Shown: positions 5,852 to 58,030 of the stretch, one piece after another
Numbering within the stretch: position 1 is the first letter of the stretch
How the letters are laid out: each line of letters starts with the position of its first letter
Assembly: GCA_040767195.1 (NCBI GenBank)
Contig: JAXGPA010000001.1
Coordinates: 768,001 to 832,000, forward strand
Source: Syntrophales bacterium
GTDB taxonomy: Bacteria > Desulfobacterota > Syntrophia > Syntrophales > UBA6807
DNA: 64,000 bases
Direction of reading: 5' to 3'
Made by a program: the position numbers and the translations under genes
The notes under the pieces: model-generated
The model's input: the letters and a program-made list of their open reading frames with translations, nothing else
Databases searched by the model: none
What the model was told of the DNA's origin: nothing

Positions 5852-7663
5852 TCAAATTCCTTCTCTGACCGTCTTTTCAGCGGCCCCCTCCGCCTGTTCC
5901 ACTGGAAGCCGGATCTCAAAGGTCGTTCCCTGGCCCGCCTCGCTTTCCACGTGAATTTCCCCCTGGTGGCCGCGGATCACCTCGTAGGCCAGGGGAAGCC
6001 CGAGACCCAGACCCTTCTCCTTGGTCGTGTATTCGGGACTGAAAATGTGCTCCATCTGCTCATCCGTGAGACCGCTGCCCGTGTCGGATATGCGGATCCG
6101 GACCTCTTTTTCCCCGTTTTTCTGAAGGGCCACCGTAACCGTTCCTTCTCCCGTGATGGATTCCAGGGCGTTTTTGAGAATATTGAGAAGCGCCTGTTTC
6201 ATCTTGTCTTCATCCATGGAGACGATGATGGGACCGCCATTAAAGACCGTTGTCAGCCTGATCCCCCGAGAATGGGCCTCCTCGGAGACGAGTCCCGTTA
6301 TTTTCTGAAGAACGTCAACGATGGAGTGGTTATTGAAAACGAGCTTGCGGCTCCGGGTAAAGACGATGAATTCCTCGATAATACCGTTCAGCCTCCGGAT
6401 CTCCTCCCGGAGGATCTCCATGATCTTCAAGAATTGCGCCTTTTTCTCCTCCTGGTCCGGGGGGAACTGGCGCTGCACCCGCTGAACGGCGATACTGATG
6501 GCATTGAGGGGGTTTCGAATTTCGTGGGCGACGCCGGCAGCCAGTTTGCCGAGTGCTGAAAGACGCTCGGCCTGCCTCAGCTTCCGGCTCATTTCCTCCA
6601 TTTTCATGAGATGGCGGTTCTGATTCTGATAGAGGGCGTAAATGGAAAGAACACCGATGAGAAGGAAAAATACCGTGGAAAGGATGGCCTGGTTCTTGTT
6701 CTCTCTCAGGATGTCATTGGTTTTGTCGTTATAGAGGCCGATGCGCGCATAACCGGCCACCTGATCGTCAAGGGTCACCGGGGACAGGACCTCCAGAACG
6801 GGGTGACCGTCAAAATCACTCTTGCGGATCGAGATGGGAACCTGTTGCTCAACAATTTTTGGAAACAGGGAAGAATCCTCGACGGGCGGAAGGTCCGGGG
6901 CCCCGGAGCGGCCGATTTCCAGGCCCTTCTTGTCGAGAATCACCAGGTAGGCCATGCCCTTTCCCCACCCTGCTTCGCCAATGGCCCGGTCCAGGGAAAT
7001 TCGGGTGCACCACTCCCGCAACCCCTTGTCGTCCAAGGCGGTAATGATGGTGCCGCTTCCATCCTTGCGACGCACGGCGATATACCCGATTTCATCGAGT
7101 TTTCCGCCCACACGGTTGAAAAGATCGATGATGATGTCTTCGTGACTCAGAAAAATCGGCGGAGACTGACGGGGTGTCTCTCCTTCCGTCCGGCCGCTTT
7201 GGTAAACGATCTCCCCTTTCCTGTCCAGAACGGCGATGAGCCAGATGTTTTCCCGTTCCGCGATGGTTGTGAGATCTTCGTCCCGAAGCCCTTCGGTCTG
7301 CCATTTCCTGTCGATGTTCCTGGCGATGTCAACGAGGGCCCGGATCAAATCTTCCTGGGGAGAAAAACTCTCACTGGCGAGAGGAATGAAATTCCGGCCG
7401 CCCTCGTCCTTGCGGAAGGCCTGATACATGGAATGAAGATTGTCCTGGGCCACTTTTTCAATCGTGGTCAGAATATCCAGGGCGCGGCTCTCCATGAAAT
7501 CGTTCAGAGTCTTGTCGAGCCTCTTGAGGTAGGTGAAACCGAGACCGGAAATGAGTCCTGCAACGATGAGAATGACCACGGTAACGGTGAGAGGCCGGAG
7601 GATCGGTCCCCGGGGGGGAGGCGTCCCGGACGTGTCTTCCTTTTTCTGCCTGCGACCGATCAT
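5852..7663 (-). CDS. Membrane sensor histidine kinase (ZraS-like)
   Basis: Two TM segments flanking a large periplasmic domain; H-box AHEIRNPLN, N-box NILKNALE, DTGSG and GLGLGL G-boxes. Confidence 0.93.
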   Translation of the reverse strand: MIGRRQKKEDTSGTPPPRGPILRPLTVTVVILIVAGLISGLGFTYLKRLDKTLNDFMESRALDILTTIEKVAQDNLHSMYQAFRKDEGGRNFIPLASESFSPQEDLIRALVDIARNIDRKWQTEGLRDEDLTTIAERENIWLIAVLDRKGEIVYQSGRTEGETPRQSPPIFLSHEDIIIDLFNRVGGKLDEIGYIAVRRKDGSGTIITALDDKGLREWCTRISLDRAIGEAGWGKGMAYLVILDKKGLEIGRSGAPDLPPVEDSSLFPKIVEQQVPISIRKSDFDGHPVLEVLSPVTLDDQVAGYARIGLYNDKTNDILRENKNQAILSTVFFLLIGVLSIYALYQNQNRHLMKMEEMSRKLRQAERLSALGKLAAGVAHEIRNPLNAISIAVQRVQRQFPPDQEEKKAQFLKIMEILREEIRRLNGIIEEFIVFTRSRKLVFNNHSIVDVLQKITGLVSEEAHSRGIRLTTVFNGGPIIVSMDEDKMKQALLNILKNALESITGEGTVTVALQKNGEKEVRIRISDTGSGLTDEQMEHIFSPEYTTKEKGLGLGLPLAYEVIRGHQGEIHVESEAGQGTTFEIRLPVEQAEGAAEKTVREGI

Positions 7664-7667
7664 GCCT

Positions 7668-8126
7668 TTACCAGACCCGCCTCAAGGGCGGGGTTTCCAG
7701 GTTGCACCACGACCGGATCTGTTCAGCCGTCAACACGCGCCGGATTTCTATCTGGCACTGAATGCCCGCCATCTCCAGTTCACTTCGAACCTTTCCAATA
7801 TCCGAGGCCGCGGAGAGAATATCCGTGTCCCGGGCGTCCGGGTTTCTCAAGAGGGCCGCGACTTCCAGCTGCTTGAGCATGATCTGGCTTCGAAGCTGCA
7901 TAAACAGATTATTGTACTTGAGGCTTATCCTGTCAATGGCCTCGACCTGCTCGGAAGAGAGGATCATTTTCGAAATGGGGGTGCACTTGCAGGCCCCGTC
8001 TTCTTCCTGCATGGGCGTAGCCGTCTCTTTTTTTCCCTCCTGTGTCTCTTCCCCGGAAACGGGAGAAACGGAATAAAGGGCAAGAGAGAGGGCAAGAGCC
8101 AGAAGAAAATAAAAACATTTTTTCAT
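7668..8126 (-). CDS. Periplasmic Spy/CpxP/ZraP-family protein
   Basis: Signal peptide from MKKCFYF (ATG 8126, AGGAG RBS); LSSEQ...VLTAEQ (LTxxQ) motifs; first gene of the TCS operon. Confidence 0.8.
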   Translation of the reverse strand: MKKCFYFLLALALSLALYSVSPVSGEETQEGKKETATPMQEEDGACKCTPISKMILSSEQVEAIDRISLKYNNLFMQLRSQIMLKQLEVAALLRNPDARDTDILSAASDIGKVRSELEMAGIQCQIEIRRVLTAEQIRSWCNLETPPLRRVW

Positions 8127-54360: not shown

Positions 54361-54437
<77 letters not shown>

Positions 54438-54445
54438 AGAAAAGC

Positions 54446-54486
54446 AAGGGGTTACGAAAAATATGACGTAACCCCTTTTTATTTTA
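54446..54486 (+). terminator. Rho-independent terminator after tRNA-Arg
   Basis: AAGGGGTTACG-N10-CGTAACCCCTT followed by a T-rich tail. Confidence 0.8.
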
Positions 54487-54754
54487 TGCTGCCCCATAGC
54501 TACCCTTATAGAATGAATTGTGTTAAACAAAAAAGCAGACTTGACCTTCTCGTCTGCACCTGCAAACAGGCAGGTCGTGTAAGCTTACCAAATCATTGAA
54601 TACCGTTTCAAGTCTAACGCGAGTTTCTTTATTCCATGACAAGCAAGAATTCCTTGACAAGTAAGTGCCATAACTTTAAATACATATGACGATTCATTTG
54701 TCTTGCCTGTGTCATGCAATTCTTTGAGCGGCTTTAATGAAGGGGGGCATCGTC

Positions 54755-55061
54755 ATGAAGGCGCTCATGCTTTTATTCCTTACTCATGATCTTTTTTATT
54801 TTTTCGCCGGTTGCTGAGGCCACGGCGTTGGTCTTGCCACAAGGGCAGCCATGGTCAGAAGGGAAGGATCCTTTTATAATGGCATGTTCGGGGGATTCAA
54901 ACTCTTACAATAGTGATCTTTTGGCTGCACAGTACGACGACTATGCAATGCACGGTCTTATCGAATTTGATATTTCTTCTTTCCCTGCCGGCACACCTGT
55001 TCATAGCGCAACCTTGGAATTGAAGGAGTATTATCTTTATAATTCCAAAGTTTTTCTTTAA
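54755..55061 (+). pseudogene. Frameshifted, truncated secreted protein with DNRLRE-like fragment
   Basis: Signal peptide split across frames (MKALMLLF.. at 54755; MIFFIFSPVAEA at 54786); GLIEFDISSFPAGTPVHSATLEL motif, then an early stop. Confidence 0.55.
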
Positions 55062-55112
55062 TATGCGACAGGATCAGGAAAGGAAACGAAACATGAAAAA
55101 GGAGAAATCAGT

Positions 55113-55781
55113 ATGAAAAAGAGAAGATACGCCCTGTTTTCTGCCTTGACCCTTTTGATGTTTCTTGTGACGCCTCTAATGGTAAACGGTGCCCAAACGC
55201 CAGGACCTATTTACGGGCCCTTTTATCTTCCTGATTTCGGAACAAACCCAGGATCTGAGCACTATTACCAGATCGTTACAACAGACTATCAGGAATTAAC
55301 TTGGTCACAGGCTGTCGAAGCGGCGGAAAACATACCGCCCTACAAGCCTCACCCCCTGGGACCGACATATTATCCACATCTGGTGACGATTACATCGGAG
55401 GATGAGTGGGATATTATCAAGGATGTCATTTTGAAGGAGGGTGACAATTGGTATTGGCTGGGAGCGACGGATAAAGAAGACGAAGGCACGTGGACTTGGG
55501 TCACCGGTGAGGAATTCAGTATTCAAAAATGGTATGCTCCTGATGAACCGAACGGGGGTACCAGTGAAAATTATCTGGAAGGAAGCTATTCGGGATGGAA
55601 TGATATCGACGACACTGGCAGGGCTTGGGGATATATTGTTGAATATGAGCGTAATGAAAACTCCGCACCGGCCGCCATCCCCACGCTTTCCGGGTGGGGA
55701 ATGATCATTATGTCAATACTGTTGGTGTTGACGGTGATAATATTCATGCATCGAGGGCGTATGGTAAGTCGAAGTAAATGA
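55113..55781 (+). CDS. Secreted C-type lectin domain protein with IPTL-CTERM sorting signal
   Basis: Signal peptide; LTWSQA, HLVTITS.DE, WLGATD..DEGTWTW, EPN, WND; C-terminal AIPTLSGWG + TM + basic tail. Confidence 0.85.
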   Translation: MKKRRYALFSALTLLMFLVTPLMVNGAQTPGPIYGPFYLPDFGTNPGSEHYYQIVTTDYQELTWSQAVEAAENIPPYKPHPLGPTYYPHLVTITSEDEWDIIKDVILKEGDNWYWLGATDKEDEGTWTWVTGEEFSIQKWYAPDEPNGGTSENYLEGSYSGWNDIDDTGRAWGYIVEYERNENSAPAAIPTLSGWGMIIMSILLVLTVIIFMHRGRMVSRSK

Positions 55782-56060
55782 CAGGTAAATACCTTGTTGG
55801 TCCCACGCGATGTTAGAATAGGTTGCAGCAAACCTATTCAACATAGGAAGAGAACAACATGGTATTTACACGTCTATTTTCAATAGTCTTGACTTTTTTC
55901 AGAAATCGATAAGATTCAATACAGATGCCTCAAGTCTCCGTCCACGGTTACCCGGACGCATTTCCGTTCTTCCGCAAAATCGAAGCCGGTCCAGATTCCG
56001 AACGCCTTCAGGAGGATTTCCTCGGGATGAAAATTCTTCCGGGTATGACCTCATTATGCC

Positions 56061-56313
56061 TTACAAGACACGCTTCACCCCGGGAATTCCCCGGATCAGA
56101 TGAGCGGAAAGAAAGCAGGCTGGAATGCCTGACACGAGTACCAAAACCAGTCTTGCCAGCGGGAAAAGCGCCGCATGCTCGGAAAGGATCGTAAACCCGA
56201 CCACAATCAGCGGGTGGAAGATGTAGTCCGCCAAAAGCGATGGCCGAATGGTGGACGATGACCAGCGTTATGAGAAAAACCCGAAGCCGGTCGATGTAAT
56301 AGGCGCGTTTCAT
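56061..56313 (-). pseudogene. Internally deleted acyltransferase-3 (OpgC/NodX-like) gene
   Basis: N-terminus MKRAYYIDRLRVFLITLVIVHHSAIAFGG joined out of frame to C-terminus YIFHPLIVV...LIRGIPGVKRVL*. Confidence 0.75.
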
Positions 56314-56518
56314 AAAATGATGAAAAAAATGGGACTGAGCTGGCAAAACATTATTTGAGAAGTTTATTTTCAGAGTGGCAAATTACGTAAAACAATAGTA
56401 TTTGTCAAAGGATTACGGGCGCTGCATTCAAGTTCAAGTGTACCTGCCGCGGCATATGGCAAATTTCCGGTTCAGAGAAGACAGAATGTGAGTTTATATT
56501 TATCAATAAGGAGGTTCC

Positions 56519-58030
56519 ATGATGAAGAGGCGTGACTTTATTAAAACCGCTCTTGTTTCCTCCGCCGGTATCGGCGTCATGTTGAAAGGAATCCCCTCCT
56601 GCGCGCGGGGCATACCCGCCTCGGCTTTTACAGGAAGGGCCGGGGTCCGTTGCTATGCCGGAGCGCCTGGCGGGGTAATCCTGACATCGCTGAGCGATTT
56701 TTTCAAGATCGGCCCGGGACCCTCCAGTTCCCACACCATCGCTCCCCTCAGAATCGCCGCCCACTTCAGAGAAACCATGGAGAAGCTTCCCCGGGAGAGC
56801 ACATCCCGGGCGAAACAGATCAGAGCGCGGCTTTACGGCAGCCTGAGCAGTACCGGCAAGGGTCACAGAACCGACCGAGCCATCATCGCCGGCCTCCTCG
56901 GCCAGAGGCCGGAGACCTGCGACACCGGGCTGATGGAGGCGCTCGCCGATGAAACGAAAACATACATCACCACAATCGGCGATGTTGATTTTACGGTCGG
57001 ACACAGCACGATCGTTTGGGACAAGGTGGAACACACCTTTCCCTTTGTCAACACGCTGGTCATGGAGCTCATCGACGAGACGGACGTGGAGGTTTTCTCG
57101 CGGGAATATTACTCCACGGGGGGCGGATTCTTTCAGTGGAAAGGTCAGAAACCAGAGGTCCGGGGCGAACCGCTTTTTCCGTACGGCAGCATGACGGCTT
57201 TCCGCCGCCTGGCGGCGGCCCAGGGCAAAGGGCTCCACGAGATCATCCTGGAAAACGACATGGCCGTTATGGGTGTGGATGAAGGAAAAATACGGGAACA
57301 CCTGGACCTTGTCCTGGAAACCATGGACAAAGGGGTACAGCAGGGTCTTCGTGAGGAAGGGCTGCTGCCGGGGCCCTTCGAATTTCACCGCAAGGCCAAG
57401 CGCATCCACGAGCAGGCGCTGAAAAAGAAAGGCGGCGACAATTTCATGGGAATGCTGAGCAGTTACGCCCTCGCCGTTTCCGAGGGTAACGCCGCCGGCC
57501 GGCTGGCCGTGACGGCGCCCACCCTGGGCTCGGCCGGCACCATACCGGCTGTGGCGTATGTGATGAAACACCACCTGAAGTGTTCCCAGGAAACCATGCG
57601 CAAAGGCCTGCTGGCGGCGGCACTGGTCGGGTTCCTCTGTAAAAACAATGCCAGCGTGGCCGGCGCCGAGGTGGGATGCCAGGGCGAGATCGGTGTCGCC
57701 TCCTCCATGGCCGCCGCCATGATCACTTACGCCCGCACCGCTTCCCTGGAAGCCACCGAGGTGGCCGCGACCATCGCCCTGGAGCATCACCTGGGCATGT
57801 CCTGCGATCCCGTGGGAGGCTTTGTTCTGATTCCCTGTATCGAACGGAACGCTTTCGGGGCCGTCAAGGCCTACAATGCCTATCTCATGGCCACGAGCGA
57901 GATCACTTCTCAGCACTGGGAAGACCTGGACCGGGTCATCGCGGCGATGCTGGAGACAGGGAAAGCCCTGCCGCAGGCTTACCGGGAAATGGGAACCGGC
58001 GGCCTGGGCGTGACGATGGTGGACTGCTAG
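56519..58030 (+). CDS. sdaA: Fe-S L-serine ammonia-lyase (single chain) with twin-arginine signal peptide
   Basis: KIGPGPSSSHT, LYGSL..TGKGHRTD, YYSTGGG, EVGCQGE, MSCDPV, IPCIERN, C-terminal Cys; N-terminal KRRDFIK + hydrophobic stretch. Confidence 0.9.
   Translation: MMKRRDFIKTALVSSAGIGVMLKGIPSCARGIPASAFTGRAGVRCYAGAPGGVILTSLSDFFKIGPGPSSSHTIAPLRIAAHFRETMEKLPRESTSRAKQIRARLYGSLSSTGKGHRTDRAIIAGLLGQRPETCDTGLMEALADETKTYITTIGDVDFTVGHSTIVWDKVEHTFPFVNTLVMELIDETDVEVFSREYYSTGGGFFQWKGQKPEVRGEPLFPYGSMTAFRRLAAAQGKGLHEIILENDMAVMGVDEGKIREHLDLVLETMDKGVQQGLREEGLLPGPFEFHRKAKRIHEQALKKKGGDNFMGMLSSYALAVSEGNAAGRLAVTAPTLGSAGTIPAVAYVMKHHLKCSQETMRKGLLAAALVGFLCKNNASVAGAEVGCQGEIGVASSMAAAMITYARTASLEATEVAATIALEHHLGMSCDPVGGFVLIPCIERNAFGAVKAYNAYLMATSEITSQHWEDLDRVIAAMLETGKALPQAYREMGTGGLGVTMVDC

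Follow-up and report, generated by a model that had tools for sequence, protein, structure and literature searches.

Gene, translation start and transcription

The window, that is, the whole stretch of 64,000 nucleotides that was analyzed, contains at 56519..58030 on the forward strand a stop-free open reading frame of 503 codons. Its product is a homolog of the type-2 [4Fe-4S] L-serine dehydratases with a predicted Tat (twin-arginine) tag, as judged from TIGR00720, PF03315 plus PF03313 and a Foldseek match to 4RQO. The strong ribosome-binding site described in an earlier, sequence-only reading of this DNA was found at 56508..56514 on the same strand (Shine-Dalgarno [SD] motif AAGGAGG), 4 nt upstream of the ATG at 56519 and 7 nt upstream of a second ATG at 56522. 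The clade of the window gene is referred to here as TatA and two further Tat-tagged clades as TatB and TatC. The second ATG gives the M-x-R-R start seen in homologs, and this start has an SD-like motif ahead of it in each of 23 TatA-clade loci. Because of this match to the homologs, the protein is probably 502 amino acids long and begins at ATG 56522, a likelier start than 56519. The only other in-frame starts within the leader are ATG21 and TTG22, and the SD motif is found at neither; a translation start downstream of the twin arginines was thus ruled out, as no SD-backed start lies further along the leader in the window.

An orphan gene, it lies on the margin of a stretch of 43 to 47% GC that follows a tRNA-Arg(TCT) gene. 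This low-GC accessory stretch (54361-56500) contains a DNRLRE-domain fragment (54786-55061), a gene for a C-type lectin protein with an IPTL-CTERM-like tail (55113-55781) and, on the reverse strand, a weak acyltransferase-3 remnant (56008-56346). A promoter scan was uninformative, with 8 sites compared to 4.2 ± 1.8 expected. Contigs from four RNA libraries, all of one study and possibly containing DNA, cover the leader and the gene, and one contig spans the ribosome-binding site, the leader and the SSSHT motif in two runs. The runs holding the gene are from anaerobic digesters; runs X5 to X17, with small or no shares, were left out. Cover by these contigs begins near 56420, is sparse just upstream and is zero over 54608-54808, although contigs cannot show a transcript start. 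Overall, the contig cover is weak evidence of expression. An in-frame insertion of 3 nt at window position 57077 was also seen in two RNA-library runs and represents a strain variant.

Enzyme family, fold and core residues

The protein scored 383.1 bits against the TIGR00720 equivalog model (curated cut-off, 345.1), and the two Pfam domains, PF03315 at residues 57 to 208 and PF03313 at residues 236 to 496, lie in a single chain in the order beta then alpha. Among solved structures the sole full-length match was 4RQO, the Legionella pneumophila enzyme (E value, 9e−84), and the AlphaFold model (pLDDT, 85.3) superimposed on it in Foldseek with a TM score of 0.85 and an rmsd of 2.9 (E value, 2e−28). 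An alignment of 243 rows (132 TatA, 67 canonical, 6 TatB and 38 other) was used to compare individual residue columns. The SSSHT motif (residues 69 to 73; 56723..56737; S16 to T20 of 4RQO) is invariant, and the Thr290 equivalent, T335, is kept and followed by L336 (with G323, within 57485..57526); both SSSHT and the Thr290 equivalent are presumably functional sites of type-2 L-serine dehydratases. H116 (56864..56869, together with R117) corresponds to His61 of 4RQO, the proposed catalytic base, and C503, the terminal residue of a C-terminal arm at 57965..58027, corresponds to Cys458, the fourth cluster ligand (roles from the accessible text of PMC12647591). The remaining cluster cysteines are C387, C429 and C440 (57677..57838). 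The complete SdaA with SSSHT, three cluster cysteines and a C-terminal Cys described in the sequence-only reading is therefore present, and the gene product is a single-chain type-2 [4Fe-4S] L-serine dehydratase homolog with predicted activity.

The beta-then-alpha chain, SSSHT, His61 equivalent, cysteine set and fold are shared with the type-2 enzymes L. pneumophila LSD (4RQO), Escherichia coli SdaA, SdaB and TdcG, and Campylobacter jejuni SdaA. Compared with these, the window protein adds a Tat signal and an arm of about 26 amino acids on the mature protein, has F/Y for the His of the HxN motif, and is changed at the equivalents of E323, E418, Q437, D483 and T491. Whereas sdaCB, tdc and C. 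jejuni sdaCA are operons with an SdaC/TdcC importer, the window gene is not part of such an operon.

It is the only SdaA-type gene of its genome. CyuA has a homologous Fe-S fold (Foldseek E value, 2e−6; 12% identity), but the Cys23/Glu25 dyad that defines it (accessible text of PMC12647591) is absent from the window protein. The genome's second PF03313 match is another gene, CyuA-like and bearing a GCTEP motif (L187; contig C7 of the window genome, G000, 6357-8081, reverse strand), which has no RR motif at its likely start. Membership in CyuA was ruled out on the missing dyad and the presence of this separate gene, and the same two observations make the suggestion of cysteine desulfidation in the sequence-only reading less likely. 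Cysteine is also an inhibitor of the solved dehydratase, according to the same portion of PMC12647591.

Residue changes specific to the TatA clade

Six columns that are otherwise near-invariant are changed in TatA only, among the groups tabulated for each: E323G, E418T, Q437L, D483A, T491M and A497G. At 323, 418, 437, 483 and 491, the residues of TatC and of the leaderless group are still E, E, Q, D/E and T, respectively; the window protein has G323, T418, L437, A483 and M491, the last two in its C-terminal arm. Several TatA changes are adjacent in sequence to catalytic or ligand residues, namely, R117 (G in the TatC and leaderless groups), which follows the catalytic His, L336, and L437, three residues before a cluster Cys. 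Position 336 is Asn in canonical rows, and N, C, A, G and S occur in other groups.

The change at the HxN motif is more widely distributed. In the window protein it reads F176-x-N178 (57044..57052), replacing His124 of 4RQO, part of a proposed second, activating serine site; this His was taken as common to the family, not as defining it. His is found here in 97% of the 67 canonical rows, compared with 3% of the 132 TatA rows (F, 67%; Y, 30%). Replacement by F/Y is common to TatA, TatB and the leaderless group (21 of 21 leaderless rows) and is not seen in TatC, and many of the leaderless relatives with F/Y adjoin serine/threonine transporters. As several near-invariant residues are changed in TatA alone, the TatA substrate may differ from L-serine.

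The twin-arginine leader

Residues 1 to 29 (56519..56605) form a predicted cleavable Tat signal peptide with the anatomy KRRDFIK (RR at 56528-56533), 13 uncharged residues from T10 to L22, a basic K23, and S-C-A followed by R at residues 27 to 30. The sequence features of class I Tat signals given in the accessible text of PMC7317946 (an S-R-R-x-F-L-K-type motif, an h-region of at least 12 residues, an AxA-type site and a basic Sec-avoidance residue) occur in it. The RRxFxK motif and h-region claimed in the sequence-only reading are thus RRDFIK and the T10-L22 stretch. Its extension of about 55 amino acids exists but was refined here into a signal peptide of about 29 amino acids and an arm of about 26 predicted to stay on the mature protein. 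This arm (RGIP...CY..., residues 30 to 55; 56606..56683) is absent from the canonical SdaA rows inspected, and a Cys is present in it in 100 of 114 homologs. A lipoprotein reading of S-C-A was ruled out in this protein, since the Cys is unconserved and homologs have A-x-A before the Arg. The Pfam TAT_signal model, of 21 positions, gave 14.1 bits against a cut-off of 22.7 (E value, 0.048).

The leader is shared by homologs, a point raised in the sequence-only reading. Among 121 proteins (the query and its 120 best matches, ranked by a score that favors leader-bearing matches), 114 have a full-length leader, and RR is kept in all 114, with F at +2 in 110 and K at +4 in 108. In the same best matches, position −1 of the cleavage site is A in 105 and G in 9, position −3 is A, S, T, V, L or G in 114 of 114, and position +1 is R or K in 110. 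The uncharged stretch is at least 12 residues long in 104 of these 114 leaders and at least 13 in 92, leaving 22 below 13. Across the 23 TatA-clade loci all six Arg codons are used at RR. The conservation of RR and the cleavage site together with this codon variety argues that the leader is not due to chance. A tree of the catalytic part alone (47 rows; a quick tree, like all those reported here) also groups the leader-bearing proteins, with an SH-aLRT of 100. The seven proteins without a full leader look like truncated gene calls: a 90%-identity cluster mate carries the full RR leader in four cases and is just as short in one, and the other two proteins have no cluster mate. In P0133, a TatB-related member, the leader has K-R for R-R.

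The window genome encodes tatC and two tatA/B genes, and 28 of the 29 other carrier genomes likewise have tatC. In G001 none was found, but this genome also lacks gatC, which adjoins tatBC in the window genome, and this suggests an assembly gap. A pattern scan identified other RR-leader proteins in the window genome. Twin-arginine-like leaders belong to a rubredoxin-like open reading frame (G000, C1:79438-79737, reverse strand) and a hydrolase-like one (C7:294159-295034, reverse strand), both named by eye from their sequences.

Distribution and phylogeny of the Tat-tagged clades

TatA members originate from sources including Syntrophaceae, Smithella, Syntrophorhabdaceae, Syntrophobacteraceae, Desulfobacterales, Nitrospirota, Competibacteraceae, Lamprocystis, Maridesulfovibrio and Anaeroselena; named carriers are Maridesulfovibrio sp. 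(WP_320172086.1), Anaeroselena agilis (WP_413781503.1) and Lamprocystis purpurea (WP_020505306.1). Close homologs of the window protein are found in Syntrophales-like genomes. The distribution is patchy, with 4 of 41 genomes of the order carrying the gene. Some TatA copies look frameshifted or truncated (L016 and several members of the 90% cluster of P0014), which would fit an accessory gene subject to occasional loss. TatB differs from TatA in its mature N terminus, and the cluster mates of one member are labeled Desulfovibrionaceae. It was identified in 11 of 81 genomes of one genus, and all 11 have a second, more distant SdaA match, leaderless where inspected. TatC is from metagenome contigs; 62 of its 68 loci fit a strict RR pattern, among them 16 whose leader has a lipobox-like end.

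In a tree of 58 rows (two chosen rows were skipped), TatA, TatB, TatC and the leaderless relatives form an unresolved fork. A monophyletic grouping of the three Tat clades is compatible with the data (p-AU, 0.579) without being demonstrated by them. The TatA stem branch is long, at 0.82 in the 47-row tree and 0.38 in the 58-row tree.

Genomic neighborhoods

Fifteen seed proteins were used to search the neighborhoods of fetched loci, 96 of them Tat tagged (22 TatA, 6 TatB and 68 TatC) and 29 leaderless; the counts include near-duplicate loci and kin and are to be read as a pattern, not as a statistical test. A HAAAP (serine/aromatic) importer was found in 0 of the 96 tagged loci compared with 18 of the 29 leaderless loci and, where at least 1 kb was available on both flanks, in 0 of 52 compared with 13 of 24. 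One HAAAP seed passes TIGR00814 (serine/threonine transporter). Counted by genome, PF03222 was present in 0 of 19 TatA, 1 of 5 TatB and 5 of 7 leaderless carriers. No match to PF03222, PF00375, PF01235 or PF13520 was identified in the window genome (SDF, AlsT and APC-family transporters being absent), these being the amino acid importer families covered. The genome search also found no lactate permease, and there are three unassigned SSF transporters. Taken together, Tat export of the window protein is likely and is well supported by comparison: the conserved RR and cleavage site, the Tat genes, the lipoboxes of a sister clade and the absence of serine-importer neighbors.

C69 dipeptidases with Sec-like N termini adjoin 6 of 6 TatB and 3 of 22 TatA loci (L051 to L055, L119, L013, L056 and L063). 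None was found in the window genome. The C69 dipeptidase was therefore ruled out as an obligate partner, as it is absent from that genome and present in 5 of 19 TatA genomes.

Among the 68 TatC loci, 30 have a major facilitator superfamily (MFS) transporter gene, and 32 have a gene for PFL, AckA, Pta or PFOR. Such operons (L068 to L138) combine the unassigned MFS transporter, PFL and its activase, AckA, Pta, PFOR and DcaP-type porins in a tdc-like fermentation module; AckA is once fused to cNMP and PduL domains. As in the E. coli tdc operon of anaerobic serine/threonine fermentation, the TatC gene is accompanied by PFL, its activase, acetate kinase and Pta, but the MFS transporter stands in the place of TdcC and the dehydratase is Tat tagged. 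The window locus differs from tdc in having no linked PFL, acetate kinase or transporter. Genes for pyruvate use were found in 2 of 22 TatA loci and not at the window locus. Considering also the TatA residue changes, the pyruvate context of TatC transfers to the window protein only in part.

Other genes were found beside TatC members. A RidA homolog adjoins one (L121:2124-2579) and aspartase homologs adjoin two (L075:4184-5665 and L076). The N termini of the L121 RidA and L075 aspartase homologs resemble signal peptides, which suggests that a wider periplasmic deamination toolkit may exist. A PF13759 2OG-Fe(II) oxygenase-family gene lies closely downstream of the TatC gene in seven loci (L103, L112, L114, L116, L121, L125 and L126), an odd neighbor for an oxygen-labile enzyme.

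In one TatA locus an AspT/YidE-type gene is directly upstream, and in genome G031 a 2-oxoacid:ferredoxin oxidoreductase operon comes after the dehydratase gene. The CstA gene of the window genome lies about 1.3 kb from such an operon, and pyruvate can be imported by CstA proteins. CstA is not diagnostic as a clade-specific partner, being present in 16 of 19 TatA genomes compared to 30 of 41 genomes of the order. The window genome also encodes an aspartate 4-decarboxylase and an antiporter, both above NCBIfam cut-offs (L188; G000, C7:21089-24392, reverse strand).

Proposed role and alternative explanations

Fe-S clusters are assembled in the cytoplasm, and a cluster enzyme acting outside it would therefore need Tat. 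From the family assignment, catalytic His, cluster cysteines, leader anatomy, Tat genes and absence of several importer families, we infer an export, a substrate, a pyruvate importer and a benefit as follows. We lean slightly toward a reading in which the holo-enzyme is exported, serine is deaminated in the periplasm and the pyruvate is imported. The cluster would be loaded into the enzyme in the cytoplasm, and the folded enzyme would be exported via Tat and cut after Ala29. In the anoxic periplasm it would then deaminate L-serine, yielding pyruvate and ammonium, and the pyruvate would be imported and used, with the CstA-family gene near the 2-oxoacid:ferredoxin oxidoreductase operon encoding a candidate importer. 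The host could thereby use serine without a serine importer and keep ammonium and the reactive enamine intermediate off the cytoplasm. Clusters of this kind are solvent exposed and prone to oxidation (accessible text of PMC9040844), which fits anoxic hosts.

A working precedent is available in C. jejuni, where a secreted asparaginase converts an amino acid outside the cell and the product is imported; AnsB(s), together with the periplasmic GGT, illustrates how a cytoplasmic-type deaminating enzyme can gain a secretion signal (accessible text of PMC4178425). However, AnsB has a Sec signal and neither AnsB nor GGT needs an Fe-S cluster, whereas the window protein would be an oxygen-labile, non-redox Fe-S enzyme exported via Tat. 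Detoxification, pH control and cross-feeding, the purposes put forward in the sequence-only reading, received no direct support. Secreted dipeptidases and pyruvate-using enzymes adjoin tagged genes, and the neighborhoods therefore point more to carbon capture.

The exported enzyme could instead be a periplasmic Fe-S beta-eliminating lyase that converts another beta-substituted amino acid to a 2-oxoacid and ammonium, candidates being L-threonine, a beta-hydroxy amino acid and an S- or O-substituted cysteine or serine. Such a shift would accord with the long TatA stem branch, with the clade-specific R117, L336 and L437 near the catalytic His, Thr290 equivalent and cluster Cys, with M491 in the C-terminal arm, and with the lack of a linked pyruvate operon at the window locus. 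We regard it as unlikely, though deserving of weight, as the core residues are all invariant and the equivalog cut-off of TIGR00720 is passed, position 336 varies in other groups too, and the loss of the HxN His is common to leaderless relatives beside serine/threonine transporters; the missing CyuA dyad and the inhibition of the solved enzyme by cysteine (accessible text of PMC12647591) also count against it. Alternatively, the enzyme could act on L-serine outside the cell in a protective or ecological role, with pyruvate uptake not the main purpose and with serine removal before entry, buffering of periplasmic pH by ammonium, or feeding of partners as variants. The orphan position within low-GC accessory DNA that follows a tRNA gene, the patchy presence in 4 of 41 genomes and the absence of a linked uptake gene would suit this explanation, but TatC genes form part of operons for pyruvate fermentation in which an MFS transporter is conserved and TatB lies beside a secreted dipeptidase, both indicating nutrient capture, and the genome has CstA and 2-oxoacid:ferredoxin oxidoreductase genes. 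It appears improbable.

Characterized members of the serine dehydratase family are cytoplasmic, and the window protein might be so too if the leader were a chaperone-binding or membrane-tethering remnant or if translation began downstream. This accords with the Pfam Tat score below its cut-off and the short h-region, with the failure to find tatC in G001, with the seven of 121 proteins lacking a full leader, and with the gene being the only SdaA type in its genome. However, all 114 leaders show a signal-peptidase I pattern and a sister clade has lipoboxes, features that would be meaningless in a cytoplasmic protein. In addition, no downstream start in the window is backed by an SD motif, four of the seven short proteins have a cluster mate with a full RR leader, and G001 lacks gatC as well; we consider a cytoplasmic location very improbable. 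Beyond periplasmic serine deamination with pyruvate import, our preferred reading, a bolder and rather doubtful scenario is that serine fermentation was inverted up to three separate times. SdaC and a cytoplasmic SdaA would have given way to a Tat-exported, non-redox Fe-S lyase that deaminates outside, with secreted dipeptidases supplying it and with coupling to the uptake of 2-oxoacids, and the TatA pocket would have been remodeled for a substrate other than free L-serine.

Novelty and significance

The sequence-only reading knew of no described example of an exported serine dehydratase, and none was found in literature searches that covered listings and the starts of abstracts, largely of openly available papers. 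The terms "serine", "dehydratase" and "lyase" are absent from the searchable portion of a 2026 Tat review (PMC13673990), and the accessible portions of PMC6300728, PMC9121001 and PMC13759103 contain nothing on export. The window gene belongs to a known enzyme family and encodes a conserved variant of it that is so far undescribed; export and substrate are predicted from sequence comparison. The Fe-S proteins known as Tat substrates are mostly redox enzymes, and an exported Lewis-acid Fe-S lyase would extend this redox-dominated picture. If the prediction is correct, metabolic reconstructions would change for genes now annotated as plain "L-serine ammonia-lyase": a serine importer would be unneeded for serine use, and ammonium and pyruvate would appear extracellularly. 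It would also represent an overlooked route of periplasmic amino acid catabolism in anaerobic digesters, sediments, soils and Desulfovibrionaceae.
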